DNA from: Phycisphaerae bacterium
Lineage (GTDB): Bacteria; Planctomycetota; Phycisphaerae; JAAYCJ01
Length of the DNA: 64,000 nucleotides
NCBI GenBank assembly: GCA_041658725.1
Contig: JBAZZQ010000004.1
Span: forward strand, 3,437-67,436
Direction: 5' to 3'
In this document: positions 10,414 through 58,050 of the stretch, in pieces
Layout of the letters: every line of letters begins with the position of its first letter
How positions within the stretch are numbered: position 1 is the first letter of the stretch
Translations under genes and position numbers: made by a program
Notes under the pieces: model-generated
Database searches by the model: none
Seen by the model: the letters and a program-made list of their open reading frames with translations, nothing else
What the model was told of the DNA's origin: nothing

Positions 10414-11058
10414 TTATACGGTAGGGGCATCGGTCTCGGTCACCCATTCCATATAGTCTCCTGATGCTTCCATCGGACCGTAGCCATCATCTGGATATGG
10501 AAGTTGATGGTTAATGCGTCGCAGAAACTTCAAATAGTTTCGAATATCTGTGAGCAAATCCATGTGGTTGCCGATGTCACGTTTTTTGAATGCGTGTATC
10601 GCATTGCGGCGATACTGGATTCTTTCTATCCAAGGGTCCCAATTATCTGACGCAACGGTACACCAAATTCGTTTCTTGAAGAAACACCGTAACTTTTCAA
10701 ATTTTAAGTTATCTGGATTTTGAATTGGGCCTTCACACTGAATTGCGTCAACATCGCCTTTATAATCGTTGTACCAAACAGAAAGAAAAAGCTTAAGGGA
10801 GCCTTCGACCATAGCGCCAAGATTTGCGTATCCGAGGATTTGCCACGCTGGTGCATCTTCGGATGTTGGTGATTGTACCCAAATGCGAAGCGAGTGTGAA
10901 AGAGACACCTGCCAGTTGAGTTGCGCCTTAGAAAGAATCGCGTCTACATTGTTGGGTGCCCAGCCACAACTATTGGACCAGAATTTTTCAAGTCCGTCGT
11001 TCAGATGGATAATCCGATTAATTATGTCCTCAATTGGTAAATTGTCTGTAAACATCAT
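10414..11058 (-). CDS. Hypothetical protein with a HEPN-like Rx4H motif
   Basis: RRNAIH lies in a predicted helical C-terminal half. The gene is AT-rich and sits 28 nt downstream of the protease-TPR gene. Confidence 0.35.
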   Translation of the reverse strand: MMFTDNLPIEDIINRIIHLNDGLEKFWSNSCGWAPNNVDAILSKAQLNWQVSLSHSLRIWVQSPTSEDAPAWQILGYANLGAMVEGSLKLFLSVWYNDYKGDVDAIQCEGPIQNPDNLKFEKLRCFFKKRIWCTVASDNWDPWIERIQYRRNAIHAFKKRDIGNHMDLLTDIRNYLKFLRRINHQLPYPDDGYGPMEASGDYMEWVTETDAPTV

Positions 11059-11086
11059 ATCTGCAATCTACAACAACCAAGACAAC

Positions 11087-12709
11087 TCAGGGAGCCGTTG
11101 ATTGCCTTAAAAAAATGCGACACTGTTCAATACTTTCCCTTGCCCATTCCTTGGGTCCACCAACCTTTATTACTTCTTCATATTCACTGATTGCTTTTGC
11201 ATACATCCCTCCTTTTTTATAGGCATCCGCAAGGCCCCAATGATAAATGAAACTTTTGGGAGCTAGTTTGATCGCAGCCTGAAAAGCTCCGATTGCGTTT
11301 TCTATATCTTTTAATTGGATATACGTATATCCAAATTGTTTATAAATATCAGGATTTCTTGGCTGCAAATCCAAAGCCGTCTGGAAATCCTTAATGGCTG
11401 CCTTTCGACGACCTAAGTAACCATAAGCTTCTCCTCGAACCATATAAGCCTGTGAACATCGAGGTACAAGGCGAGCCAATAATTCTGCTGAGACGAGGGC
11501 TTCCGGATACTGTTCATAGTCCATATAGCATTTACTTAATTGATACAAGGCTGGCGAAAAGTCCGGTTTCAATTCGCTTGACTTTTTAAATGCATCGATT
11601 GCCTCTTCAAGATTCGATTTATCATGATACAATTCAAAACACATGCAATGAATCTTGCCCAAAAGAAAATGAACCCCATATTCAAAATCAGTAGAATCTG
11701 CCTTTAACGCCGCGTTCATAAGTCTAATTGCCGAATCGTAATCATTGATAGTTGTATTAGCGTCCAACTTTACAGATTCATAAGCCTTTTTGCCTTTAAA
11801 ATATAACCCCAGTTGCTCATCATCTTTAGGGCCTCTTTTGTGATTGATCCAGTATTTTGTAATTGCCTGAGATTCAGCGTCTGAATCTTCCTCTTCAATG
11901 CTGGAGCCTTTCCATAACGGTTTAGGATTTCTGGGGTTCTCAAGCAATCGTTTAATCTCGCATGAGGGAATGGCAAAATTTAAATTCTGACCGTCTGCAA
12001 GATAAGACGTGATTACACCGACTACTGCTCCGTCAGCAGTAAGAAGTGGTCCCCCACTTGATCCATGACTGATGGGCGCGGTAAATTGTAACCATCTGCG
12101 TTTTCCATTTTCATCTCGACGTCCACTGACCAATCCCTCGCTAAGACTATTGGTTAGTCCCTCGGGACTTCCGACTGTATAAATTTTCGTGCCGATGGGA
12201 AGCATGTAATTGGTATTTACTGTAAGAACTTTGGGAGGATAGATTGAGGATGATTTACTTTTTATGGTTTCTTTATTCAAAATAGATGAAATTTCGGGAC
12301 TCAAAACATCGATTACCGCTAAATCCTGAGATTCATCTGATGAGATAAGATCGTCAACCAAAAGTCGAGTCCCGTCCGCCATAATAATATCCGCATTAAC
12401 GGCAGGTCGTATCACATGATAATTGGTAATGACAACAGATCGTAAAAATACTCGACCTTTGATTTTTTCATCAAGCGCAACAAAGAACCCTGATCCTGTC
12501 AGTATCTGATGTTTGTTATCGTCTTTTACGACAATCTTCACAACGGATGGAGAGACTTTTGCAAAAAGTTCTTCTGGGGTTAGCACAGACTTGGCTATTG
12601 ACGTTTGGCTTTTGTTTTCGTGTTCGGTTTTCTTTTGTGTTTGTGATATAGCGGTTCCATACGCAGTAATAAGAAAAAAGAAAATCAATACGAAGTTGTT
12701 TTTAGTCAT
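11087..12709 (-). CDS. Secreted trypsin-like (S1C) serine protease fused to TPR repeats
   Basis: The signal-like N-terminus is MTKNNFVLIFFFLITAYGTA. It has TNYHV, DLAVI and HGSSGGPLL catalytic-triad contexts, and C-terminal TPR-like repeats (AIxxFxxALxLxP). Confidence 0.75.
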   Translation of the reverse strand: MTKNNFVLIFFFLITAYGTAISQTQKKTEHENKSQTSIAKSVLTPEELFAKVSPSVVKIVVKDDNKHQILTGSGFFVALDEKIKGRVFLRSVVITNYHVIRPAVNADIIMADGTRLLVDDLISSDESQDLAVIDVLSPEISSILNKETIKSKSSSIYPPKVLTVNTNYMLPIGTKIYTVGSPEGLTNSLSEGLVSGRRDENGKRRWLQFTAPISHGSSGGPLLTADGAVVGVITSYLADGQNLNFAIPSCEIKRLLENPRNPKPLWKGSSIEEEDSDAESQAITKYWINHKRGPKDDEQLGLYFKGKKAYESVKLDANTTINDYDSAIRLMNAALKADSTDFEYGVHFLLGKIHCMCFELYHDKSNLEEAIDAFKKSSELKPDFSPALYQLSKCYMDYEQYPEALVSAELLARLVPRCSQAYMVRGEAYGYLGRRKAAIKDFQTALDLQPRNPDIYKQFGYTYIQLKDIENAIGAFQAAIKLAPKSFIYHWGLADAYKKGGMYAKAISEYEEVIKVGGPKEWARESIEQCRIFLRQSTAP

Positions 12710-45460: not shown

Positions 45461-45514
45461 ACTTGGAAATGAAACCTTATCAACGTAAAATTCATCGTAT
45501 ATTTCAAGATTAAG

Positions 45515-46825
45515 ATGGGTTTAAGAAAACCCACTACGAAAATAAATAATATGAACACAGATAGAAATATAGAGAAAAAGACGCATACGATCATTGCACC
45601 AATTCCGAGACTCACCATACCAGAGGCGTCTTACAAACAGACTTTTTTGTTTCCACCTTATATAACCATTTCTCAAATGAATCCTCAACTCAGAACTTGT
45701 CTCTTGGAAGCAAGCCTGAAAGACAACCAAAGAAGAGATGATGAAAAGGAAAAGATACGAGAAATAATTTTGCAGAGTGACATTGTTTTTTTTGTTGAAT
45801 TGGATTTACACACCTTTGAAAAACAAGATTTTTTTCTGCAAATAACTTTCCCACCTATCGCATATATTATTTTAAAACGAATTTGTGATTTGATGCGTTT
45901 ATTTGCAGACATCCCCGGAATCACAGACGAGATATATTGGTTTCACAATACGGATAAAACAGATACGATTAATCAAAATACCCTCTCGTCTAAATTATGT
46001 CTTGATGTAAATCCTTTGAGGGAACATATTTATCTGGAAAATCAAAATGATAATATTGATATCCAATTTGTACTTGCACTATTTTCATTGGAAAAATTTT
46101 GGAACAAATTAAAATCCTTTTCTCAAGTTGAATCACTTCTAGGCTTTTTGACCGATAAAGAAACCGTCAGCAAGCTGATTACAAGAGGAAATGATGAAGC
46201 AAAGTGTAAAACCGAACATTTTGTATTGGATGTTTATGATGAACGACGATCGGTTTCACCTCATGAGGAGGATGATTCTACCGTCTCTTTAAATTTATCG
46301 AAACAGCAAATACGATGGTTTGCTATGGGCATGGGTGCAGCTTATTGGGACGAACTCATAAATTTTGAAGAAATTCAAAACAGAAAACCCCAAAAACAAA
46401 GGCTATTTCGTGCTTTTCAAATCTTCACAAATTGTTTCCGTCTTAAGAATCCTTTGAGATTTGCCTCATTCATTACCTGTTTAGAGGCGCTCTTCAGCAC
46501 AGATTCCAGTGAACTGTCTTATCAATTATCTTCCCGTATTGCATGGCTTTTGAAACCGGATGATTTTATAGGAAGGAGGGAAATCTTCGATCAAGTTAAG
46601 AAACTTTACGGTTTTCGGTCAAAAATCGTTCATGGTGACGTGTATAAATATGAAGAAATGGCCGAAAATGACGAGAAGGCCTTATCTATTGTCAGACAAT
46701 GTTTTTGGAAGATTTTGTCCGACGATGAAATATATAAACTTTTTTGTGAGGATACAAAAAAGCAGTGTGATGAATTCCTTAAACACTTATTTCTTGGCAG
46801 GCCCAGCGAAATACCGGATAAATAA
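45515..46825 (+). CDS. Hypothetical protein with C-terminal HEPN-like domain (Rx4H)
   Basis: The C-terminus has ...CLEALFS...SYQLSSRIAWLL...YGFRSKIVHGD, with R368 and H373 counted from the 45515 start. The gene is AT-rich. The start codon is uncertain. Confidence 0.5.
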   Translation: MGLRKPTTKINNMNTDRNIEKKTHTIIAPIPRLTIPEASYKQTFLFPPYITISQMNPQLRTCLLEASLKDNQRRDDEKEKIREIILQSDIVFFVELDLHTFEKQDFFLQITFPPIAYIILKRICDLMRLFADIPGITDEIYWFHNTDKTDTINQNTLSSKLCLDVNPLREHIYLENQNDNIDIQFVLALFSLEKFWNKLKSFSQVESLLGFLTDKETVSKLITRGNDEAKCKTEHFVLDVYDERRSVSPHEEDDSTVSLNLSKQQIRWFAMGMGAAYWDELINFEEIQNRKPQKQRLFRAFQIFTNCFRLKNPLRFASFITCLEALFSTDSSELSYQLSSRIAWLLKPDDFIGRREIFDQVKKLYGFRSKIVHGDVYKYEEMAENDEKALSIVRQCFWKILSDDEIYKLFCEDTKKQCDEFLKHLFLGRPSEIPDK

Positions 46826-46826
46826 A

Positions 46827-47378
46827 ATGGAACATCATGTGGAAAAGTTGATTGAAAACGATCTAAGACAGACGTTTGAACAGATGCTAGCCTCACGAGT
46901 AAAACGGCGGTTGGATGTCAAGCCGCATCCCCTTACGCCAAACCATCATTTTGCACCCGTCTCATCCGAATGTTATGATTTATTTCGCGATGGATACTTT
47001 TATGGATGCGTTTCTCTTGTTCAATCTGTGGCTGAGGGCTTGGTAAAATTTTTATGCCTGAGAAATTGTTGGAAGCCAGACAAAGTCTTTGAAAAAAACG
47101 TGGATAAATTATTCGAAAGATATTGCATATCAAACGAATTGAAGGAGCATTTACTCCAAATTTGGAAAGAGCGAGATAACTACCACCACATGAATCAAAA
47201 CATAGAAAAGAATCATAAAAACCTTGAAGACCAAGCAAGAGAGAAACTGGAACTCCTCAACAAAATCGAAAGTGATATTTTTTTCTTTGCCGTCAAAGAC
47301 GGGAAAATCGTCCCCAGTAATCCTAAATATTGGGATAGTAAAAACGGTAAAGCACCAGTATTTTTACGGTGTATGTAA
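46827..47378 (+). CDS. Hypothetical protein, possible second HEPN-like partner
   Basis: The ATG lies 1 nt after the upstream stop codon. The protein is helical and contains WKERDNYHH (an R-x4-H spacing is possible). Confidence 0.35.
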   Translation: MEHHVEKLIENDLRQTFEQMLASRVKRRLDVKPHPLTPNHHFAPVSSECYDLFRDGYFYGCVSLVQSVAEGLVKFLCLRNCWKPDKVFEKNVDKLFERYCISNELKEHLLQIWKERDNYHHMNQNIEKNHKNLEDQAREKLELLNKIESDIFFFAVKDGKIVPSNPKYWDSKNGKAPVFLRCM

Positions 47379-47431
47379 AGGTTTGTATCGAATATAGGCA
47401 GGTATCAAATAATTGAATAGGAAATACACTT

Positions 47432-47767
47432 ATGGTTGTAAAGATCAAAACCCCAAAAGAGAAAATTAAAACTTCGAGCCGCGAGTCTGTTATTCAGCTT
47501 TTGAAGAAAAATCGATCCCGGATAAAAAAATTCGGTGTCCAGCGGTTGGGAATTTTTGGTTCGATCTCGCGAAACGAAGCTGGCGTCCGAAGCGACGTGG
47601 ATATCCTTGTGGATTTTAACGAGACCACTTATCGGAAATATATTGACCTGAAATCGCTTCTGGAAAAAATTCTGGGCCGAAGGGTGGATTTGCTTACTCC
47701 GCCTGCCTTGGAGAACCGGCTTAAAGATAATGTTTTAAAGGATTTGATTGATGTCCAGGTCAGCTAA
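47432..47767 (+). CDS. mntA: MNT-type nucleotidyltransferase antitoxin
   Basis: It carries the GIFGSISRNEAGVRSDVDILVDF minimal nucleotidyltransferase motif. Confidence 0.8.
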   Translation: MVVKIKTPKEKIKTSSRESVIQLLKKNRSRIKKFGVQRLGIFGSISRNEAGVRSDVDILVDFNETTYRKYIDLKSLLEKILGRRVDLLTPPALENRLKDNVLKDLIDVQVS

Positions 47768-48092
47768 AGAGCGATTGTTGGATATTCTCGACGCTATCGC
47801 CGCGATTGACGGCTATGTGGAAGGGATGAAATATGCCGATTTTCTTGCCGACCGCAAAACGCGGGATGCGGTCGTGCGAAATATCGAAGTGATTGGTGAG
47901 GCCGCCCGGTCTTTGCCAGCACGGTTCAAAGAAAAATATTCTGATGTTCCCTGGACAGAGATCGTCGGCATGCGAAACGTTGTCGTTCATCACTACTTTG
48001 GAATTTTATCCGACGTGGTTTGGAATATCGTCAAACAGGAACTGCCCGAACTTGAATCTCACGTAAAAAAAATCCTTGTAAAAACTCAATAG
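47751..48092 (+). CDS. hepT: HepT (DUF86) HEPN toxin
   Basis: It has the Rx4HxY motif (MRNVVVHHYFGI) and overlaps the MNT gene. Confidence 0.8.
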   Translation: MSRSAKERLLDILDAIAAIDGYVEGMKYADFLADRKTRDAVVRNIEVIGEAARSLPARFKEKYSDVPWTEIVGMRNVVVHHYFGILSDVVWNIVKQELPELESHVKKILVKTQ

Positions 48093-48095
48093 GTT

Positions 48096-48254
48096 ATGAA
48101 ACAGAAAACAAAAAAATCCAAACCCCTCTCTGTCCAAAATATCGATATGCAAATGCTCAGGGATAATCTCAAGCGAAGTTACGCCGAGCGAATTCGTCGC
48201 CATCAGATTGCCCTTGAGACCATGGAAAAACTTCAAAGGGCTAAATTCCTATGA
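48096..48254 (+). CDS. Small basic protein (52 aa, not in the ORF track), possible partner of the downstream nucleotidyltransferase-fold protein
   Basis: My translation is MKQKTKKSKPLSVQNIDMQMLRDNLKRSYAERIRRHQIALETMEKLQRAKFL. It overlaps the next gene with ATGA. Confidence 0.4.
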   Translation: MKQKTKKSKPLSVQNIDMQMLRDNLKRSYAERIRRHQIALETMEKLQRAKFL

Positions 48255-48742
48255 GCAAATCATTTTTAACACTTTTGGAATTGCTGGCCAAAAACGAAGT
48301 TGAATTCGTTATTATAGGCGGTTTTGCCGGCGTGGTTCACGGCTGTATTTATGTTACGCAGGATGTCGATATTTGCTGTGATTTTTCAGTTCCAAACCTT
48401 TTACTACTTGCTAAAGCTCTTAAAATTGTACACCCCGTCCACAGAATGACGCCCGCCCGTTTGAAATTGGAACTGAACAAAAAAAATGCCGCACAGTTTA
48501 AAAATTTGTACTTGGATACCGATATCGGTCAGCTTGATTGCCTAAGCTTCGTTCAAGGCGTGGGCGATTTTCACAAGGTCAGGGAAAGCAGCCAGCTCAT
48601 TGAAGTTGAAGGCGTTAAAATGAGGGTACTTAATATTGAAGCTTTGATAGAATCTAAAAAGGCAATGGGGCGTCCTAAGGACCGCTTGATGATCGAACAG
48701 TCAAAAAGAATCAAGAAAGATCGAGGTAAATCTAAAAAATAA
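48251..48742 (+). CDS. Nucleotidyltransferase-fold protein (DUF2204/AbiEii-like pattern)
   Basis: It has IIGGFAGVVHGCIYVTQDVDI (G-G-x-n-D-x-D) and the C-terminus LNIEALIESKKAMGRPKDRLMIEQ. Confidence 0.5.
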   Translation: MSKSFLTLLELLAKNEVEFVIIGGFAGVVHGCIYVTQDVDICCDFSVPNLLLLAKALKIVHPVHRMTPARLKLELNKKNAAQFKNLYLDTDIGQLDCLSFVQGVGDFHKVRESSQLIEVEGVKMRVLNIEALIESKKAMGRPKDRLMIEQSKRIKKDRGKSKK

Positions 48743-49780
48743 TCAGACGCTCTGGCATTCTTGAAGATGAGCGGCTCGGGATTTTGCGGCTGATCTAAAA
48801 TCGCGGATCAAACTGTATTGTGCTTGATTGGTGATCTGGAAGCCTGCGTATTTGATAATTAGACGTTCCAAAAGGGCGGCTGGAGCGGATTTGATTTGCT
48901 CGATATCGTTGCAGATTGAAGCGATTTGATCCAGGTCCGCCGGTTTTATGGGCATGGACAAACTGTCGGTGAGTTTTACGATGTCCTGATATCGGCCTTC
49001 CTGCCATCGTTGAGAAACAAGATTCATCCAGCCGTTGACCGGCCAGGCTGATTTTGGGGCGGGGGCTTCCATATCGTGCCACTGGATATTATGGCCGCGG
49101 ATGATACGTTTTGTCTCGCCTTGATCGTGCTCGATAAATGTTAATTGGATATGGCGCGCGAGTGAAAATTTTAGGCCGATGGTAACCGACACGCACTCTC
49201 TGATGGAAGCAGGGATGGCCATCAGCAGCCATTGGAACGTTTCAAAAGGGGAGGGAGCATCGACGACAATCGATAAATTATTGCTTAACGCCGATTCTAT
49301 AATCTGACAAACATGGTCCATTTGAAAGGGCGGCTGCAAGTTTTGTTCGGGAATGACCAGTTCCAGCGGATCGAGGCGGGTTACGGGGTTAAGGATTCTT
49401 GAATTTCCAATCGCCTGGCCTATGGCGGCATGGACGAGGACGGGATCGAATTTGAATTGCTCAAAGGCCTCGCGATCGAGGATTGCTATGTGTGTATAAA
49501 CTCGATTTCCGCCTCGGCAGGTCTGTTCGGTCCCGGCGTAACAGGAATAGCCAATGCAATATCGGCCCGTGGTTAAACGGTAACTGGATAAACCAATCGC
49601 GGAATCGGACTCGTTGCATAACCCGTCATGCGAAACAGATCGCTGGGTGATTTCCGTTCGTTCGCTATTGCTTACGCCCGGACTGGCGGCGATGAGGCGA
49701 TATCCTTCGCCCATCGGCGAACGTATGGACGTAAAGACGGATTGATCGGCGGGGAGTTTCATAGTTGATTGATTACCCAT
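48743..49780 (-). CDS. Hypothetical protein, possible GTPase-associated (GAP1-like) partner
   Basis: It is translationally coupled to the upstream GTPase gene; an ATGA junction results if the start is M7 at 49762. The N-terminal FTSIRSPMGEGYRLIAASPGV recalls, from memory only, GAP1-type N-terminal domains. Confidence 0.3.
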   Translation of the reverse strand: MGNQSTMKLPADQSVFTSIRSPMGEGYRLIAASPGVSNSERTEITQRSVSHDGLCNESDSAIGLSSYRLTTGRYCIGYSCYAGTEQTCRGGNRVYTHIAILDREAFEQFKFDPVLVHAAIGQAIGNSRILNPVTRLDPLELVIPEQNLQPPFQMDHVCQIIESALSNNLSIVVDAPSPFETFQWLLMAIPASIRECVSVTIGLKFSLARHIQLTFIEHDQGETKRIIRGHNIQWHDMEAPAPKSAWPVNGWMNLVSQRWQEGRYQDIVKLTDSLSMPIKPADLDQIASICNDIEQIKSAPAALLERLIIKYAGFQITNQAQYSLIRDFRSAAKSRAAHLQECQSV

Positions 49781-50643
49781 TCAAATGGCTCCAAAATACC
49801 CTGAAGGGCGGTATGCAGGGGAATGGGCACAACGCATTCGTCATTTTCGCCCGCCGCAAAACCAAGCGACCCCACCGCGCTGCAGGCGAAAAACTCCACG
49901 TTTTCGAATCGGCTTTCGCACATATTCCAAAGACGATATAAATTAGCCCGGACAAACTGGCGGGGGTTGTCGAAACATTCCGGGCAGTAATCGGATTTGC
50001 ATAAAACCACGGCAGTCGGAGTTTTAATCCGCTGATTGCGTTTTCCGGCCAAGGCGGAATCGATATAGCTCATCATCTTCAATGCGAAGAAATCCGGGCG
50101 CGAGGAACCATTGGCCGCCAACGCGGCATCGACGAGTAAAAGGGTTCCCGCGGATTTTGTGACCAGATTGCGAATCACGCGAAAGGTCTGCGGGGTGGCG
50201 ACCTCGGCGGCCAGAGATTCCCCGGCCATATCCGGCATGATCAGGTCGATCCAGTTGGATTTATTCTTTCGTTTGCATATCTGGTAATAGGCCCAATACC
50301 ATTGATTGGTCTCCATCGGTGTTTTCGGTGGAAACACTCGGCTGGCCATGTGGCTGATGACTGTTTGTTGAAGATCGATGGAATAAGGCCCCTTGGGAAT
50401 GGCTTCAAAATCCCCCGCCCGCTGCGAGAGCATATCGAGCAGGAAACCCAGATAAACGGTTTTTCCGACGTTGCTTTCCCCGACGATGCTGACAATCTGA
50501 GGCTCCCGCTGCTGGGCCGCCGAATCGTGAACAAGGGCGAGCGGCGCGGAGCACTCCCGGCAGAGAACGGCCTCAGTCGGGTTATCTGTTCCGCAGATCA
50601 GGCAAGACGTTCCAATTACAGTTTCAGCGTATCCGGCCATCAT
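49759..50643 (-). CDS. Zinc-ribbon-fused small P-loop GTPase
   Basis: It has a zinc ribbon (C14xxC17...C28xxC31), G1 GESNVGKT (K61), G3 DMAGE, a G4-like CKSD and a G5-like CSAV. Confidence 0.7.
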   Translation of the reverse strand: MMAGYAETVIGTSCLICGTDNPTEAVLCRECSAPLALVHDSAAQQREPQIVSIVGESNVGKTVYLGFLLDMLSQRAGDFEAIPKGPYSIDLQQTVISHMASRVFPPKTPMETNQWYWAYYQICKRKNKSNWIDLIMPDMAGESLAAEVATPQTFRVIRNLVTKSAGTLLLVDAALAANGSSRPDFFALKMMSYIDSALAGKRNQRIKTPTAVVLCKSDYCPECFDNPRQFVRANLYRLWNMCESRFENVEFFACSAVGSLGFAAGENDECVVPIPLHTALQGILEPFEWVINQL

Positions 50644-50703
50644 TTTACTCCTTGTACGTGGCGGGCAAGCCCGCCTGCTAAATTAAGACATTGTACGGGT
50701 GTA

Positions 50704-51717
50704 CTAATTGTTGTTATCGCTATCCTGTTTGTCGACATCAAGCGCGCAGCGAAAACCGACATTATGAACACGAAAGAGCACGCCCAATCCTGTTCGGAAT
50801 AAACTCGTGGCTTGCGAGGGAAAATAAGTGTCAAACGCGCCGCCGCGAATCGATTTCATGAGCATGTCTCCGACCACGGGCCGACCGGCGCTATCGACAA
50901 CGGAGAAATCCGCATCCGTCCATTCCCAGACGTTTCCCACCAACTGCATGACACCGTTGGGTGCGGCTCCGGCGGGATATTCATTTACGGAAACAGTTCT
51001 TCCGATATTGGAAGCCCAGATATTGCAGCGTTTGATGTCCAGGGCATCGCCCCACGGATATCGCCGTAAAACATGCGCGATGCTGCGAATCCGCCAACTG
51101 GCTGCCATTTGCCATTGGGCCTCGGTCGGTAATCGAACCCCTGCCCATTGGGCGTAGGCGGCGGCTTCGAAATAACAGACCCCGACGACCGGATGATCGA
51201 TCAATCCTTTTTCATGACGACCATGCTCCCAGAATCTTGGACCGGGATGTTCGGTGCGGTCTTTAAAATCGATCAGGTGAGGCCAGATATCTTTAGGCCA
51301 CAGATCAAGATTCGCGTATCCATCGGCATCGACGAATTTCTGGAACTGAGCATTGGTGACCGCGCACCTGGCAAGAAGAAACGGCTCGGTTTGGATGTCC
51401 GTTTCCGGACAACCGGGATAATCGTTCACGGTTTGCGCCAGCGCCGCGTATCCTTCGGGAACGAGCGCAAATTGTTCGTCGAGCTTTTGACTCGCCGATT
51501 GACGAATGGTGGAAAGCTGCGGATGATCCTGCCACTGGTCGCAATCGGCCAGAATCCTGGCGTAGCGCTCCAGTTGCAGACACTGTTTCAAGGGATCGCT
51601 ATCCAGCGCCAGGATGTCGGCGGGAACATAGGGTTCCTGGTGGCGGGCCTTGGGAGGTGGAGACGCCTTTTCCTTGTTCCGACCATTTTGTCTTCGAGAA
51701 AAAAGATTCAGAGCCAT
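50704..51717 (-). CDS. FGE-sulfatase (SUMF1/EgtB/PvdO) fold protein lacking the catalytic Cys pair
   Basis: It has HPVVGVCYFEAAAYAQWAGVRLPTEAQWQMAAS, RYPWGD, GNVWEWTDADF, IRGGAF and VGFRCAL. No cysteines follow the RGG motif. Confidence 0.8.
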   Translation of the reverse strand: MALNLFSRRQNGRNKEKASPPPKARHQEPYVPADILALDSDPLKQCLQLERYARILADCDQWQDHPQLSTIRQSASQKLDEQFALVPEGYAALAQTVNDYPGCPETDIQTEPFLLARCAVTNAQFQKFVDADGYANLDLWPKDIWPHLIDFKDRTEHPGPRFWEHGRHEKGLIDHPVVGVCYFEAAAYAQWAGVRLPTEAQWQMAASWRIRSIAHVLRRYPWGDALDIKRCNIWASNIGRTVSVNEYPAGAAPNGVMQLVGNVWEWTDADFSVVDSAGRPVVGDMLMKSIRGGAFDTYFPSQATSLFRTGLGVLFRVHNVGFRCALDVDKQDSDNNN

Positions 51718-51719
51718 GA

Positions 51720-52421
51720 TTATTTACCCTCCGCGCCGATAGCCCGACGTTTGGCGTCACGACAAAGTTTCTGGAACCGTTCAACGGAAGTCTTTACCTG
51801 ACTGTTTTGCATTAAACCACTATCGACCACCAGATCGGTTTTCTCATTGGCGACTTTGTTCAATTCCTGGTTCAATTCCGACTGCAATCCGGAAAGACTA
51901 TTACGCGTTGCGCTGAGTTCTTGCGCTTTGGTTTCCCATTCCTTCTTAAACACGGCGACGCGCGTTTCCTGTTGATCTAACTCTTCACGCCGCCGCTCGA
52001 GCGTGGTAGCCATATTGGAAAGGTCCGATTCTCGCTTTTGGATGTATTCTTCCTCTTTCACGATTTCCTGCCGCTGGGAAGCCAGTGCTTCCTGCTCGCG
52101 ACCGAATGTATTTTGTTCCTGTTTAAGTTGTTTTTCCCGCTCGGCCAACGCGGCTTCTCGTTCAGTGATCTCTTTCTGAGCGGTCTCTAATTTCCGGCAG
52201 TGGTTTTCGCGTTCGTCGAGTTGACTTTTTTGCTGTTCAAATTGTTCTTCCATCGCTTGTCGGCAGGCCCCCAGCGAACTTGATCTTGCATCCAGCAATT
52301 CTCGAAGAGCTTGAACGGACGTTAAAACGTCCTTTCCCATTTCTTCGATATGTCCCACATCGACTACATCCACAACCGCGGTGGTTTCCAGTTTATGACT
52401 CATTTCAATTATCTCCTCCAA
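51720..52421 (-). CDS. Coiled-coil protein
   Basis: A long E/K/Q/R-rich heptad-like region (EREAALAEREKQLKQEQ...) is present, and no enzymatic motif was seen. Confidence 0.6.
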   Translation of the reverse strand: MEEIIEMSHKLETTAVVDVVDVGHIEEMGKDVLTSVQALRELLDARSSSLGACRQAMEEQFEQQKSQLDERENHCRKLETAQKEITEREAALAEREKQLKQEQNTFGREQEALASQRQEIVKEEEYIQKRESDLSNMATTLERRREELDQQETRVAVFKKEWETKAQELSATRNSLSGLQSELNQELNKVANEKTDLVVDSGLMQNSQVKTSVERFQKLCRDAKRRAIGAEGK

Positions 52422-52879
52422 AAGTTTTTTTTGTTCGAGGGCGTAGCGGGGGGTGTTGAAGCAGTCACACTATGTTTTTCCAGCAATTCCCGAACGCTTT
52501 TTGTATTACCACTGAGCCGGCGAAGCACTTGTATTTTTCGGGCCGTTTCCGGGTCCAGCGAAGCCAGAAGAGCCTCATCCTCATTCGGCGAGGGCAAAGC
52601 TTTCTCTTTGACCGGTTCCGCTATTTTTGGGGGATTGGGCGGACTCGCGGCAGAAGGATTCCTAGTTTGAGCGATAACCCGTTCCCTGGAAACAGCGGGT
52701 TTTGTTTGTTGGGTGTTTTGTTGCGTTATTAAACTTTTTAGCGATGTCTGCGCATGGGTGATGGCACCGGACCAGGCCTCCAGTTTGGCATCGAGGTCCG
52801 CCAAGGCCTTGGCCATGGTTCCGTCGTCGGCGGGTAATGCTCCCGTCTTTGAAATTTCATCATTTAGTGTTACGACCAT
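52409..52879 (-). CDS. Small hypothetical protein with Pro/Ser-rich linker (first gene of the operon)
   Basis: It overlaps the coiled-coil gene by 13 nt and contains no recognisable motif. Confidence 0.45.
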   Translation of the reverse strand: MVVTLNDEISKTGALPADDGTMAKALADLDAKLEAWSGAITHAQTSLKSLITQQNTQQTKPAVSRERVIAQTRNPSAASPPNPPKIAEPVKEKALPSPNEDEALLASLDPETARKIQVLRRLSGNTKSVRELLEKHSVTASTPPATPSNKKNFWRR

Positions 52880-53046
52880 AAATCACCTTTGCGTCTTTAC
52901 AGCAGTTGTGCGGACTAAATAGCCCCCTTTTTAACGCGCCTGTTAAAATGGAGAAGACATCACTCTAATATAATTATACAATACGGGGAAAAACCACGGT
53001 GAAAACAAAAGCAAGCCGAACGAAGGTCCTATAAAAAATAATGGCC

Positions 53047-53083
53047 AAATCCTAATGACTAATGTCTAATCAATGACTAATCC
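53047..53083. repeat. Stop-codon-rich repeat aatcctaatgactaa(t)gtctaa (locus 1 of 3)
   Basis: aaatcctaatgactaatgtctaatcaatgactaatcc overlaps the 3' end of the 53077-54012 gene. Confidence 0.7.
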
Positions 53084-54012
53084 TTATGGTCAATTGTCCC
53101 GGTGGAATATTTTTTATGGAGTCCGAACCAAAGTGTTACATGGAACGTGCTGCCCGGCCCTCCAGGACCTTCGGTATTTACATTGGAAGGGCTTTCAACC
53201 CAGATCGCGCCATCCATCATGCGAATCAAATGACACGTGAACGACAAACCCGGGCCATTTTCGCGGTTCAAGAAGGTATCGCCCAGTGAAAAAGCGTTCA
53301 AAAGTGTTTCGCGGTTTTCCGGAGGAATACCCGGCCCGGTATCGCTGATGGCGAAATGCAGATAGATTTTGTCTTCGTGAACGGATTGAACTTGAAGGTG
53401 AAGTCCGACCTCGCCTTTTTCGGTGACTTTGATGGCGTTGGAGAGAAGATTAATAACAACCTGCCTCAGCTGGTCCGCGTCGCCGACCAGGGCATCGGGC
53501 ACATTATCGTCAACACGCAGGATCATTTTCAATCCATTCTCCTCGGCGGTCCTTGCCAGCGTGTCTAAGGCGGAGTCCAAACTGCTGCGTAAACCAAAGT
53601 CGATGGATTTTCTTTCTCCTTCATCCATTTCGTTCCTGGAAAAGTCGTCAACCTTATTGATCAAATCCTGCAGCGAATTAGCCGTTTTCTTCACCGTCCA
53701 TAAATAGTCTTCCTGCGCCTGGGTCAGATTGGGCTCTAAATTTCCCTTTGTCCAACGGTTGACTTCATTTAATTCTCCCGCTTTCAATTTATAGTCCGAG
53801 ATATTTCTTTTTAGGTCATCAATCGTTTTTTCCTGGTCCTGACTTCGAAGAAGTAGAGTAATCAAAAGCAACAGCAGTATTAACCCTCCAAAGATCATCA
53901 AAGAGTTGACGGGATCGATACCCGTCCTCGTCGCCGCATCGGCAAGATAAGGAATCGGTAAAATAATTTCGCAGCAGATCACAAGCAAAAGTAAATTTAT
54001 GTATCTTTTCAT
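53077..54012 (-). CDS. Membrane-anchored histidine-kinase-like ATPase without a phospho-acceptor histidine
   Basis: It has the N-box LLSNAIKVT, G1 DTGPGI and a degenerate G2 GPGLSF. The DHp-equivalent region NEVNRWTKGNL...QEDYLWTVKKTANSLQDLINKVDDFSR contains no His. Confidence 0.6.
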   Translation of the reverse strand: MKRYINLLLLVICCEIILPIPYLADAATRTGIDPVNSLMIFGGLILLLLLITLLLRSQDQEKTIDDLKRNISDYKLKAGELNEVNRWTKGNLEPNLTQAQEDYLWTVKKTANSLQDLINKVDDFSRNEMDEGERKSIDFGLRSSLDSALDTLARTAEENGLKMILRVDDNVPDALVGDADQLRQVVINLLSNAIKVTEKGEVGLHLQVQSVHEDKIYLHFAISDTGPGIPPENRETLLNAFSLGDTFLNRENGPGLSFTCHLIRMMDGAIWVESPSNVNTEGPGGPGSTFHVTLWFGLHKKYSTGTIDHKD

Positions 54013-55796: not shown

Positions 55797-56336
55797 ATGG
55801 TAAGCGGCGATCAAATGGAAATGGAAGCAAAAATAGCGGTGGACGACCTGGTGGCCGTCGAAACAAGGCTTAAGCAGGCAGGGGGGCAGAAAAAGGGCGA
55901 GTATAGTGAAACCGATACTTTTTTCGATTACGAAAATCATCAATTAAAGGAATCCGATTCCGCGCTTCGCCTGCGCAATCGTGAAAATTTACAAACCCAT
56001 AAAAGTAATTTTCGGTTGACCTTTAAAGGACCACGCCAGCCAGGCCCTTTTAAACATCGGCGGGAAATTGAATTCGTGGTCGATCCTGGCGAAAATGTCA
56101 GGCTTTTATTGGAATGTTTGGGTTTGAAACCCTTCGCCGTCTACACCAAAAAACGCAATGCCTGGTTGTTAAACAATTGCGCCGTTGAAGTGGATTTCAT
56201 TGAAGGGATTGGCAAATTTATTGAAGTTGAGGGACCGAATGAAGATAGCATCCGAAAGTCCCTGGCCGCCTTAAATCTAGCGGATAAACCGGTCATTCAC
56301 GAGAGCTACCTGGCGATGGTCCTGAATAAAAAATGA
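55797..56336 (+). CDS. CYTH-domain protein (class IV adenylate cyclase / triphosphatase-like)
   Basis: It has the ExExK signature (MEMEAKI), LRLR and EIEF motifs. An AAGGA RBS lies 8 nt upstream. Confidence 0.7.
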   Translation: MVSGDQMEMEAKIAVDDLVAVETRLKQAGGQKKGEYSETDTFFDYENHQLKESDSALRLRNRENLQTHKSNFRLTFKGPRQPGPFKHRREIEFVVDPGENVRLLLECLGLKPFAVYTKKRNAWLLNNCAVEVDFIEGIGKFIEVEGPNEDSIRKSLAALNLADKPVIHESYLAMVLNKK

Positions 56337-56411
56337 CTAAATCCTAAATCCTAATGTCTAAAAAGATGTGTAAGCCGGATTCTTCGTTAAGACATTAGGA
56401 TTTAGACATTT
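56333..56411. repeat. Stop-codon-rich repeat forming a hairpin (locus 2 of 3)
   Basis: aaatcctaatgtcta ... tagacattaggattt are inverted copies around a loop of about 25 nt. Confidence 0.7.
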
Positions 56412-56497
56412 CTTTTCTTGACATCTACGTTAGTCGCTGCTAAAACAATAGATGAATTTTATAAATTATGTGCTTTTCCTTGATAAGGAGTTTCAGC

Positions 56498-56641: not shown

Positions 56642-57910
56642 ATGCCCGATCCCGGTTCTGAAAAGAAATTTCGCCTTCCGCGAAACGTCATTGCTCTTGG
56701 TTTGGTAAGCCTTTTTACCGACATATCGAGCGAAATGCTTTATCCGATAATTCCCTTTTTTCTCCGAGGGACACTGGGCGCCCCTTTATGGGCCATCGGA
56801 GTGGTGGAAGGGGCCGCCGACGGCATGTCATCACTGCTCAGGGGCTTAAGCGGTTACCTTTCCGATAAATTTCGCCGACGGAAAATATTTGTCTTCCTCG
56901 GTTATACCGCTAGTGCCCTGGCCAAACCCATTACCGTTCTGGCTCAATCCTGGGGGTTTGTTCTCGGAACCAGATTGTTAGATCGGTTCGGAAAATCCAT
57001 ACGCACCGCCCCACGTGACGCCCTGATTTCCGACCAGGTCTCTTCCGAAAATCGCGGATACGCTTTCGGGTTTCACCGAGCTATGGATACCGTCGGAGCT
57101 GTCCTCGGGCCTGTCCTCACCCTGGTTCTCGTCTGGCACTTCGGATTTGCTTATCGCCGAATATTCCTTCTTGCCTGCATACCCGCCGCCATCGGCGTTG
57201 TAATCGTGATCGTTGCCGTGCGGGAAAGTCGAAAATCCGATTCCGGGCAAAAATCCTCCACGCCTCACGCCCATATCCCCGCCGGCAAATGGATTAGTCC
57301 ATCGCTTGTTAAATTTTTTATCGTCACCGCCTTATTCGCCCTGGCCAACAGTTCCAATACCTTCATCATTTTGCGGGCACAGGATATTTTCAAAACCTAT
57401 CTTCATGCTCCGGTGGTCGATGGTACGCGGCATACCAACGCTGATGCCCTCGCCATCATCGGTTATGTTCTTTTCAATCTTTCCTTTGCCCTGCTGGCCA
57501 CCCCCATGGGAATCCTGTCTGATCGCCTGGGCCGAAAAAAAATCATTGTCGTCGGATACCTTGTATATGCCCTTGTTTACGGCGCCCTAGCCTTTTGGGC
57601 CAATTTCTACACCATTTGGGCTATCTTCCTGGTTTACGGTATTTTTGAAGCCATGACACACGGAGTAACCAAGGCTCTGGTCGCCGATCTCGCTCCCGCC
57701 GAATATCGCGGCACCGCGCTAGGCGTTTCCAACACCATTGAAGGGGTCGGCACTTTCACCGCCGGGATAGCGATGGGTTTTTTATGGCAGTGGTTTGGCC
57801 CGGAATTGGCGTTTTCCGTCGGTGCCGTTTTAGCTCTGTCGGCCGCCATTCTTTTCCTGGCTTTTCGTTTAACACCACAGACCATTAAATCCGATAATAC
57901 TAAAGAGTAA
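56642..57910 (+). CDS. MFS transporter
   Basis: It has about 12 TM segments and the MFS loop motif GYLSDKFRRRK. Confidence 0.85.
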   Translation: MPDPGSEKKFRLPRNVIALGLVSLFTDISSEMLYPIIPFFLRGTLGAPLWAIGVVEGAADGMSSLLRGLSGYLSDKFRRRKIFVFLGYTASALAKPITVLAQSWGFVLGTRLLDRFGKSIRTAPRDALISDQVSSENRGYAFGFHRAMDTVGAVLGPVLTLVLVWHFGFAYRRIFLLACIPAAIGVVIVIVAVRESRKSDSGQKSSTPHAHIPAGKWISPSLVKFFIVTALFALANSSNTFIILRAQDIFKTYLHAPVVDGTRHTNADALAIIGYVLFNLSFALLATPMGILSDRLGRKKIIVVGYLVYALVYGALAFWANFYTIWAIFLVYGIFEAMTHGVTKALVADLAPAEYRGTALGVSNTIEGVGTFTAGIAMGFLWQWFGPELAFSVGAVLALSAAILFLAFRLTPQTIKSDNTKE

Positions 57911-58050
57911 TGACTAAATCCTAATGACTAAATCCTAATGACTAATGTCCAAATGTCTAAATAAAGAATTTGGCATACACATTTATTAGACATTCGTCAT
58001 TTACGAATTAGTCATTGATTAGACATTAGTCATTAGGATTTAGTCATTTG
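57910..58050. repeat. Stop-codon-rich repeat cluster forming a long imperfect palindrome (locus 3 of 3)
   Basis: tgactaaatcctaatgactaaatcctaatgactaatgtc ... gacattagtcattaggatttagtca. Confidence 0.75.

Follow-up and report, generated by a model that had tools for sequence, protein, structure and literature searches.

What do bacteria of the Phycisphaerae gain from five tightly packed genes that encode a zinc-ribbon GTPase, a putative regulator of that GTPase, a protein with the fold of formylglycine-generating enzyme (FGE) and two coiled-coil proteins? The genes lie on the minus strand at positions 48743-52879 of a 64,000-nucleotide stretch of a Phycisphaerae contig (JBAZZQ010000004.1, positions 3,437 to 67,436), which we refer to as the window. 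A preliminary description of the sequence had presented them as a candidate nucleoside triphosphate (NTP)-dependent conflict or sensing system. We think it probable, though by no means certain, that the operon is a Planctomycetota DO-GTPase system of the GAP1-N2 type carrying an FGE-fold (FGS) component, that it works as a GAP1-regulated switch and that it fulfils a cellular role rather than an anti-phage one.

Do the five genes form a genuine unit? A six-frame listing of open reading frames (ORFs) places five co-directional minus-strand frames at 52409-52879, 51720-52421, 50704-51717, 49759-50643 and 48743-49780, and genes predicted independently on the source contig (ENA ERZ27247322, k141_374809, 100,417 bp) agree with this packed arrangement, giving products of 156, 227, 337, 293 and 339 aa. 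In order of transcription, gene 1 (52409-52879, 156 aa in both the listing and the gene call) belongs to a coiled-coil family and gene 2 (51720-52403; 227 aa from ATG 52403, 233 aa from TTG 52421) encodes a further coiled-coil protein. They are followed by gene 3, the FGE-fold protein (50704-51717, 337 aa, PF03781), gene 4, the zinc-ribbon DO-GTPase (49759-50643, 293 or 294 aa, PF19975 and PF19993), and gene 5, a GAP1 of the N2 type (48743-49762; 339 aa, or 345 aa from ATG 49780, PF20013). The lengths of the junctions vary with the start codon chosen. With the starts selected by the gene caller (ATG 52403, ATG 50640 and ATG 49762), 5 nt separate genes 1 and 2, 2 nt genes 2 and 3 and 63 nt genes 3 and 4, and genes 4 and 5 overlap by 4 nt at an ATGA; of the junctions first described, the 2-nt gap and the optional ATGA junction stand, and the overlaps of 13 and 22 nt hold for the most upstream starts only. 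The sequence GGAGGAG lies 5' of the gene 2 start at ATG 52403, and the 5-nt spacing between genes 1 and 2 recurs in locus L001 (from ORF coordinates) and on contig P0190. None of the five proteins contains a transmembrane segment (19-residue Kyte-Doolittle maximum at most 1.53).

The arrangement is repeated across genomes. We scanned one genome per species with a pattern derived from an alignment of 8 sequences, which gave 83 confirmed loci, nearly all in metagenome-assembled genomes of Planctomycetota; 80 were kept and compared with the window proteins by tblastn. The order FGE-fold gene, GTPase gene, GAP1 gene and their strand were constant in essentially all 80 loci, so that the synteny named as a test in the preliminary description is indeed found. 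GAP1, which was the query of the scan, is present in 80/80 loci with 29-58% identity, the GTPase gene lies directly 5' of it in 79/80 (55-84% identity, 35-38% in four outliers) and the FGE-fold gene directly 5' of the GTPase gene in 75/80 (50-76% identity in most, 41-46% in two). Of the five loci that lack an FGE match, four start within the GTPase gene or shortly before it. The remaining one, L018, is also the one without a GTPase match; its candidacy as a GAP1-only exception was dismissed, since the DNA upstream is N-masked and the final residues of the GTPase are still readable. Only one cassette per genome was recovered, the 80 loci coming from 80 different assemblies, and a single GTPase gene is present at the window locus and in the gene-called relatives. 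A divergent clade keeps the trio as well, with a 451-aa FGE-fold protein, a 41%-identical GTPase and a 666-aa GAP1 (hhalign 99.9%, E = 1e-31). Co-occurrence of the operon genes is far above chance. That the five are chance neighbours or artefacts of gene calling can for practical purposes be discounted, given an order and strand repeated in 80 species, overlapping or near-touching junctions, the same five genes from an independent gene caller and structure models of GTPase and GAP1 that are both of high confidence. Two complete cassettes of typical Phycisphaerae-level identity come from assemblies labelled Candidatus Binatota (L008) and Alphaproteobacteria (L028); mis-binned contigs rather than transfer are the likeliest source.

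To which class of system does the operon belong? The combination of genes had been reported as unrecognised, and in this respect the preliminary description needs correcting. GTPase-centric systems composed of DO-GTPases, a new TRAFAC family, and GAP1 proteins were predicted computationally by Kaur, Burroughs, Iyer and Aravind (eLife 2020, PMC7159879), and some planctomycete GAP1-N2 systems in that survey carry FGS (FGE-fold) components. As defined there, DO-GTPases have a Walker B glutamate and often bear zinc ribbons, and the GAP1 gene lies downstream and encodes N, M and C domains; the GAP1-N2 type usually has two zinc ribbons and a third component with FNIII repeats, and paired GTPases occur in 38% of systems (PMC7159879). 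The window operon is a further member of this type. It shares with it a TRAFAC GTPase with a glutamate after the G3 glycine and an N-terminal zinc ribbon, a GAP1-N2 gene placed directly downstream through an ATGA overlap and modelled with three globular domains, a planctomycete host and an FGE-fold partner. The operon differs in possessing one GTPase and not a pair, and one zinc ribbon instead of two. No FN3 match was found in the five proteins or their neighbours, and transmembrane, tubulin, HSP70 or kinase partners are lacking. Moreover, the FGE-fold partner is the same in each of the 75 loci with upstream sequence and does not behave as a variable effector, and the context of the cassette is mostly non-defence. 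Three features go beyond the published description: a longin/DENN-like model for GAP1, the families of coiled-coil partners, and the highly conserved, non-island nature of the cassette. Neither longin nor DENN is mentioned for GAP1 in that paper, nor are coiled-coil partners described (PMC7159879).

The motifs read from the GTPase sequence at the outset (GESNVGKT, DMAGE, CKSD and the SAVG region, with the zinc ribbon) are all present, and so are the FGE-fold signatures named with them in gene 3. Pfam searches bear out the corresponding domain calls, with matches above the gathering scores for FGE-sulfatase in gene 3, DO-GTPase1/2 in gene 4 and GAP1-N2 in gene 5. In gene 4, PF19975 (E = 2.1e-13) and PF19993 (E = 7.1e-11) both exceed the 27-bit gathering score. 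Over 47 homologues the four cysteines of the single N-terminal CxxC...CxxC ribbon (C14, C17, C28 and C31) are invariant, and the G1 (G55-x4-G60-K61-T62), G3 (D138-x-x-G141) and G4 (K216-x-D218) motifs are invariant or nearly so. D172 is conserved as well and T108 is nearly invariant, the latter being a candidate switch-I residue. To judge from these motifs, gene 4 encodes an intact TRAFAC GTPase with all its G motifs in place, and K216-x-D218 of G4 indicates guanine specificity. E142, the residue after the G3 glycine (D138-M-A-G141-E142), is kept in the main clade and varies in distant homologues, a pattern that would fit catalysis assisted in trans. An AlphaFold2 (AF2) model of high confidence (pLDDT 92.6) is TRAFAC-like. 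Its Foldseek matches include Der, EF-Tu, Arl2/6/13B, Rnd1, YcjX and atlastin, all equally near at E ~1e-5, and assignment to a subfamily from the fold was abandoned because the list of E-values is flat from Der and EF-Tu through Arl and Rho to YcjX and atlastin. No sequence relative was found in the PDB. The family is a narrow one, as an exhaustive phmmer search recovered only 250 cluster representatives at E<1e-3 among 1.84 billion. GTPase homologues make up 766 clusters at 90% identity, all of whose named sources are Phycisphaerae or Planctomycetes; the GAP1 homologues retrieved from a collection of 5.8 billion proteins all carry PF20013, with every named source in Planctomycetota.

What kind of regulator might GAP1 be? 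The resemblance of the gene 5 product to GAP1-type GTPase-associated proteins, suspected from its N-terminus, is confirmed by PF20013 (GAP1-N2, E = 5.3e-11, above the gathering score), which 35/35 homologues match. Beyond GAP1-N2 and a weak GAP1-N1 match no Pfam family was detected, and the M and C regions have no assignment at sequence level. The protein had otherwise been described as having no enzymatic motif; to judge from the structure model it is not featureless. The AF2 model (pLDDT 89.9, predicted TM-score 0.89; 35 homologues) resembles a longin plus DENN-type regulator of GTPases and comprises an N domain (residues 1-120) with the longin order of elements, beta-beta-alpha-beta-beta-beta-alpha-alpha, an M domain (residues 130-232) of alternating beta and alpha elements and an all-alpha C domain (residues 240-339). 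When this model was compared with PDB structures by Foldseek, the best matches were Folliculin (6nzd_H, E = 1e-5), DENND10 (8p0v_M, 9e-5), FNIP2 (6ulg_L, 2e-4), a chain of the C9orf72:SMCR8:WDR41-ARF1 complex (7mge_C, 2e-4), a chain of the active FLCN GTPase-activating protein (GAP) complex (8dhb_J, 4e-4), TagF (9t0n, 9e-4, TMq 0.37, the highest TM-score among bacterial proteins) and a chain of the C9orf72-SMCR8 complex (7o2w_A, 2.3e-3). These top seven matches, six of them with E<1e-3, are all longin/DENN-type proteins or TagF, and the top eukaryotic ones are without exception longin/DENN-type regulators of small GTPases. GATOR1-complex entries follow at ~2e-2, and unrelated folds appear only from ~8e-3 with low probabilities. 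We interpret the model as a layout of longin, alpha/beta and helical domains of DENN/folliculin type, which is likely, not proven.

Conservation within GAP1 is markedly uneven. Median identity to the window protein is 54% in the N domain, 30% in M and 27% in C. The invariant residues are F10, T11, S12, G20, Y21, R22, E34, E37, R67, G77, E79, R83, G84, G85, T90, R188 and R203, with foci at the beta1-beta2 loop (G20-Y21-R22) and in the beta4-beta5 loop (G77, E79 and R83-G84-G85). The divergent 666-aa GAP1 retains the RGG and has Q in place of R22. In eukaryotic longin GAPs a conserved motif of the beta1-beta2 loop lies beside the arginine finger (PMC12290439). By analogy, R83 is a candidate catalytic arginine, since the RGG is invariant, is kept even in the divergent GAP1 and lies near the beta1-beta2 loop as in these GAPs.

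How far can the eukaryotic parallel be taken? With the longin-DENN regulators (folliculin-FNIP, C9orf72-SMCR8, DENND proteins and Nprl2/3 of GATOR1) GAP1 shares the predicted three-part layout, the best Foldseek matches and a pairing with a small GTPase. It differs from them in the lack of detectable sequence similarity and in low TM-scores, and the likeness may reflect either homology or convergence. The window GTPase, moreover, is not recognisably Arf, Rag or Rab, and the eukaryotic longin GAPs are heterodimers where the operon encodes one GAP1. TagF, a post-translational regulator of type VI secretion, matches the GAP1 model in fold, but has no sequence similarity to GAP1, and no type VI secretion genes lie near the cassette. 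TagF is not known to have a GTPase partner, and literature searches for TagF or for bacterial DENN links returned nothing relevant. A bacterial analogy in genetic layout is offered by MglA-MglB of Myxococcus, in which, as is well established (see also PMC3521125), a small GTPase gene stands beside that of its cognate longin/Roadblock-type regulator; MglB, however, is a single Roadblock domain as against the three domains of GAP1, MglA is Ras/Arf-like and carries no zinc ribbon, and the Mgl system has no FGE-fold protein. According to Zhang et al. (2012, PMC3521125), DENN and dDENN were then known only jointly, in the DENN module, and the guanine nucleotide exchange factors (GEFs) and GAPs of GTPases were mostly unique to eukaryotes.

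What does the FGE-fold protein contribute? Gene 3 consists of a helical N-terminal extension of ~100 aa followed by an FGE-sulfatase (C-type-lectin-like) domain, which PF03781 matches at residues 103-325 with E = 6.9e-37, above the gathering score. The nearest solved relatives by sequence are the FGE-like C-domain of EgtB (2.8e-25), OvsA and bacterial FGEs at ~1e-19 (FGE 6.5e-20). In the alignment with the Streptomyces coelicolor FGE (6muj, 2q17), 'RGGSYLCHDSYC' stands opposite 'RGGAF---DTYF' of gene 3, so that LCHDSYC faces F---DTYF. Both catalytic cysteines of FGE are missing from gene 3 and no Cys pair is conserved over 54 homologues, which upholds the initial judgement that the protein is not a formylglycine-generating enzyme. 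Instead, RGGAFDTYFxxQATSxFRTG is almost invariant in the C-terminal region of these homologues. Nor is the protein an EgtB, as it has no DinB-type domain: Pfam gave no DinB match, and the EgtB profile aligned at 196-353 of 413 only, with 106.7 bits against a cut-off of 360. The protein thus shares the FGE-sulfatase fold with FGE (SUMF1), EgtB and OvoA (E from 7e-37 in Pfam to 1e-19 for PDB sequences) and is set apart by the missing FGE Cys pair, the missing DinB iron domain, its own extension of ~100 aa and the invariant DTYF.

Could gene 3 nevertheless be an enzyme of new specificity, such as an oxidase or a sulfoxide-synthase-like protein, with the GTPase and GAP1 as maturation or delivery factors in the manner of GTPase metallochaperones? 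The FGE-fold family includes FGE, EgtB, OvoA and SenA, the nearest solved relatives are enzymes, and strong conservation of gene 3 fits a conserved substrate. The copper-binding catalytic cysteine pair of FGE and the iron-binding DinB domain of EgtB/OvoA are missing, however, the GTPase is of the TRAFAC class and not of the G3E metallochaperone class, and coiled-coil partners would be unexpected in a maturation pathway; we consider an enzymatic function highly improbable. A diversified binding protein was envisaged as another option, since FGS domains in other ternary systems are linked to diversity-generating retroelements (PMC7159879). Gene 3 has the same broad fold as the diversified FGS/C-type-lectin proteins (TvpA), but no template/variable direct repeat was found within 44-58 kb (reverse transcriptase was not searched window-wide), and the C-terminus is near-invariant; on these two grounds diversification of gene 3 was ruled out. 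We predict that gene 3 encodes a non-catalytic binding module, distinct from FGE, for a conserved ligand. FGE itself recognises a peptide motif, and for this reason the ligand may be a peptide. In locus L020 a second, distinct FGE-fold ORF of 325 aa (11038-12015, plus strand; RGGAAWHF...) lies shortly 3' of GAP1.

The first two genes of the operon had been described as a 156-aa protein with a low-complexity linker and a 233-aa coiled-coil protein. The coiled-coil character stands; what the comparison adds is that both belong to families of variable length with conserved C-terminal motifs. Gene 1 encodes an N-terminal helix, a low-complexity linker, the C-terminal motif LDPETxxKxxxLRRL...ELL and a basic tail ending in F/W (NKKNFWRR), the C-terminal run being LDPETARKIQVLRRL...ELL...NKKNFWRR. 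It has no Pfam or PADLOC family, with sub-threshold coiled-coil-type matches at most, and partial tblastn matches to its C-terminal ~60 aa were obtained in 31 of the 80 loci at 25-70% identity. The same motif also terminates coiled-coil proteins of 800-1600 aa that are encoded, in divergent orientation, just upstream of the cassette in a Phycisphaerales subclade. Such giant proteins, with C-termini of the form LDPET...LRRL...K/R-rich-WF, are found in L030 (2416-6273, minus strand), L031, L037, L048, L059, L080 and others, and the L030 protein appears by eye to have two N-terminal FHA-like domains, which we note as candidates. On the strength of the shared motif, gene 1 is the minimal form in a coiled-coil family whose proteins range from 156 to ~1600 aa. 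As a matter of speculation, its basic-aromatic tail might act as a peripheral membrane binder. Homologues of gene 2 lie directly 5' of the FGE gene in 51 of the 80 loci at 24-49% identity. They measure 233-442 aa, and conservation over 36 aligned homologues is limited to the C-terminal ERFQKLxRDAKRRA; Pfam, PADLOC and NCBIfam returned coiled-coil-type cross-matches far below the cut-offs, those in PADLOC being JetC and LmuB. Short conserved C-terminal motifs at the ends of rods of variable length suggest docking peptides on scaffold proteins.

Does the cassette reside in defence islands? The preliminary description had placed it in such a context, and the wider comparison speaks against this. 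In the Phycisphaerales subclade a gene for the housekeeping enzyme formiminotransferase-cyclodeaminase (FTCD) follows the cassette in 17 loci, and genes of an ArgE-like peptidase and of the cyclase family lie nearby in 5 and 11 loci, respectively. Across 13 species of the subclade the median pairwise identity is 75% for the GTPase, 72% for FTCD, 66% for the FGE protein and 41.5% for GAP1. The Pfam families matched most often by 114 flanking ORFs from ~70 genomes are FTCD (9), cyclase (8) and peptidase M20 (4). In PADLOC these ORFs gave single matches only (SspA, DndA, BrxL, a CARF-fusion model and JetC-type models), which are probably cross-matches to ordinary paralogues. Gene calls on a close relative and on a 5.6-Mb genome show the full five-gene cassette amid ordinary genes, namely glycosidases, regulators, radical-SAM and fatty-acid genes, peptidases, PilZ and HflX; in all, three contexts besides the set of flanking ORFs have ordinary neighbours. 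No relative of the cassette was detected in the viral contigs of IMG/VR in a scan with one peptide pattern, and a viral origin was set aside on that basis. The context of the cassette is thus unlike that of a mobile defence island. With its FTCD neighbour and ordinary flanks it comes close to the conserved, non-island setting that had been named at the outset as a ground for rejecting the conflict reading.

Is the operon, then, an immune device or a housekeeping one? As an NTP-dependent conflict system, immune or abortive-infection-like, it would use GAP1 to sense an invader, the GTPase as threshold or switch and the FGS protein as an effector that acts on an invader molecule by binding and not by enzymatic attack. 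Just such a framework was used to define the family, with planctomycete FGS variants included (PMC7159879). The M and C domains of GAP1 diverge far faster than the GTPase, the coiled-coil partner is very variable in size and orientation, and the cassette abuts a patch with an MntA/HepT toxin-antitoxin pair in the window; the flanking genes change between most genomes, and the cassette may be patchily distributed. Other observations are hard to reconcile with conflict. The presumed effector is constant across loci, 50-76% identical in most, with neither swapping nor hypervariability, and no diversity-generating repeat lies near the FGE gene. None of the five proteins contains a recognisable nuclease, protease or pore-forming domain. 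PADLOC-DB v2 has no family for genes 1, 3, 4 and 5 and yields weak JetC/LmuB matches on gene 2, which agrees with the first impression that no named defence system is involved. The flanks are mostly metabolic in ~70 genomes, with stray single PADLOC cross-matches only, relatives in viral contigs are lacking, and the chromosomal position is fixed across the Phycisphaerales subclade. We regard a conflict system as possible but rather unlikely, and a defence role of this operon as unsupported. Conservation, occurrence once per genome in the scan, mostly ordinary flanks and absence from viral contigs make a lineage-specific cellular role likelier than a fast-evolving anti-phage system. We therefore lean, without considering the matter established, towards a conserved role of this kind, for example in scaffold, membrane or cytoskeleton-type regulation.

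Several points weigh against a regulated switch with a cellular role and have to be set in the balance. The authors who defined the DO-GTPase/GAP1 family read it as a conflict system (PMC7159879), and full-text literature searches brought up no subsequent experiments on either DO-GTPases or GAP1. The M and C domains of GAP1 evolve fast (27-30% identity), which is compatible with an arms race too. The genome scan was pattern-limited and found 83 species, so the cassette is perhaps patchy rather than core. Beyond the Phycisphaerales subclade, conservation does not extend to the flanking genes, and distance correlation with the neighbouring FTCD (Spearman 0.0, Pearson 0.63, the latter presumably driven by a few close pairs) is uninformative on vertical inheritance. 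As to the regulator, the DENN-like call comes from the fold search only: no DENN, uDENN, Folliculin, FNIP or C9orf72 family of Pfam was matched by 35 GAP1 homologues even at E<=5, and a profile search of PDB sequences gave no match and no sequence-level link to DENN, longin or TagF. Global TM-scores against the fold matches are low, 0.20-0.37, probably because the domain orientations differ. For the GTPase, the Foldseek search picks out neither Arf, Rag nor Rab.

How might the five proteins work together? We propose a plausible switch mechanism in which the zinc-ribbon GTPase would act as a guanine-specific molecular switch and GAP1 as its cognate regulator, the conserved longin-like N-domain docking on the GTPase. 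A regulatory role of GAP1 is suggested by the adjacency of the two genes, the ATGA overlap, the fold matches and the conservation of the N-domain. By analogy with longin GAPs we favour a GTPase-activating function, in which the invariant Arg83 of the RGG loop would be positioned beside the beta1-beta2 loop; nucleotide exchange is an alternative role. The cysteine-less FGE-fold protein would serve as a non-catalytic binding module that holds a conserved ligand, while the two coiled-coil proteins may provide scaffolds or tethers. The FGE-fold adaptor and the coiled-coil proteins would form a complex whose assembly or disassembly depends on the nucleotide state of the GTPase. A bolder version of this proposal takes GAP1 as a true bacterial counterpart of the longin-DENN regulators and the cassette, with its coiled-coil proteins of up to ~1600 aa, as a vertically inherited machine of Phycisphaerae and other Planctomycetota with candidate roles in membrane, polarity, cytoskeleton or division functions, and not an immune one. 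The lineage is known for its eukaryote-like cell biology and is not known to possess FtsZ; even so, we consider this stronger version unlikely.

The sequences around and within the operon contain further features that might bear on its expression. The 197-nt intergenic region upstream of gene 1 (52880-53076, minus strand) is probably the promoter region of the operon, on suggestive grounds: it contains a perfect TATAAT at 52978-52973 (minus strand) with TG directly 5', ~94 nt before ATG 52879, and AAAGGTGA is read shortly 5' of the gene 1 start codon. A consensus scan of 52880-53076 found no complete -35/-10 pair. In the 60-nt spacer between the FGE and GTPase genes, a GC-rich hairpin (GGCGGGC-TT-GCCCGCC, 50660-50675, minus strand) is followed by AAGGAG and then by the GTPase start codon. 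It has no T-run and is hence not a canonical intrinsic terminator; such a hairpin could make expression differ along the operon or affect the stability of its mRNA. An AT-rich TAATGACTAAATCCTAATGAC-like motif recurs in intergenic spacers of the window at 53032-53070, 56324-56362 and 57901-57953 and, inverted, at 56390-56431 and 57980-58000, so that the intergenic region before gene 1 contains one copy. The motif resembles a small dispersed intergenic repeat of the repetitive extragenic palindrome (REP) or miniature inverted-repeat transposable element (MITE) kind, or a shared regulatory site.

The operon had also been described as sitting inside an AT-richer island, which its composition contradicts: its GC content is 0.51-0.54, the same as in the remaining window. 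The low-GC stretch (0.39-0.42) lies at ~45-48.7 kb (about 45500-48742), directly 3' of the last operon gene. It contains an MntA/HepT toxin-antitoxin pair (47432-48092), a DUF6036-type nucleotidyltransferase (48251-48742) and two proteins (45515-46825 and 46632-47378) that belong to no Pfam family and whose Rx4H-like motifs, RSKIVH and RDNYHH, are reminiscent of HEPN. This patch was not seen beside the cassette in other genomes; it is therefore probably an insertion that merely adjoins the operon. On the other side, 53077-54012 (minus strand) encodes a 311-aa membrane-anchored protein resembling histidine kinases, which has a good HATPase_c domain, lacks a receiver domain and matches HisKA only in part and below threshold; its best matches are the cores of hybrid kinases such as BarA and TorS. 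The gene is not conserved beside the cassette in other loci and was rejected as a part of the system.

What are the implications for DO-GTPases and for the biology of the Planctomycetota? DO-GTPases and their GAP1 partners form a large and purely predicted class, of which the planctomycete variant is a compact representative with five soluble proteins and no membrane components; its strong conservation allows confident structure models. If GAP1 is of longin/DENN type, the whole class would gain a testable mechanism, with GAP1 as a GAP or GEF acting on its cognate GTPase, and bacteria would be seen to possess a fold that is considered characteristic of membrane-traffic regulation in eukaryotes. 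The pattern of conservation calls a blanket immunity reading of these systems into question and points to a possible lineage-specific module of Planctomycetota cell biology.

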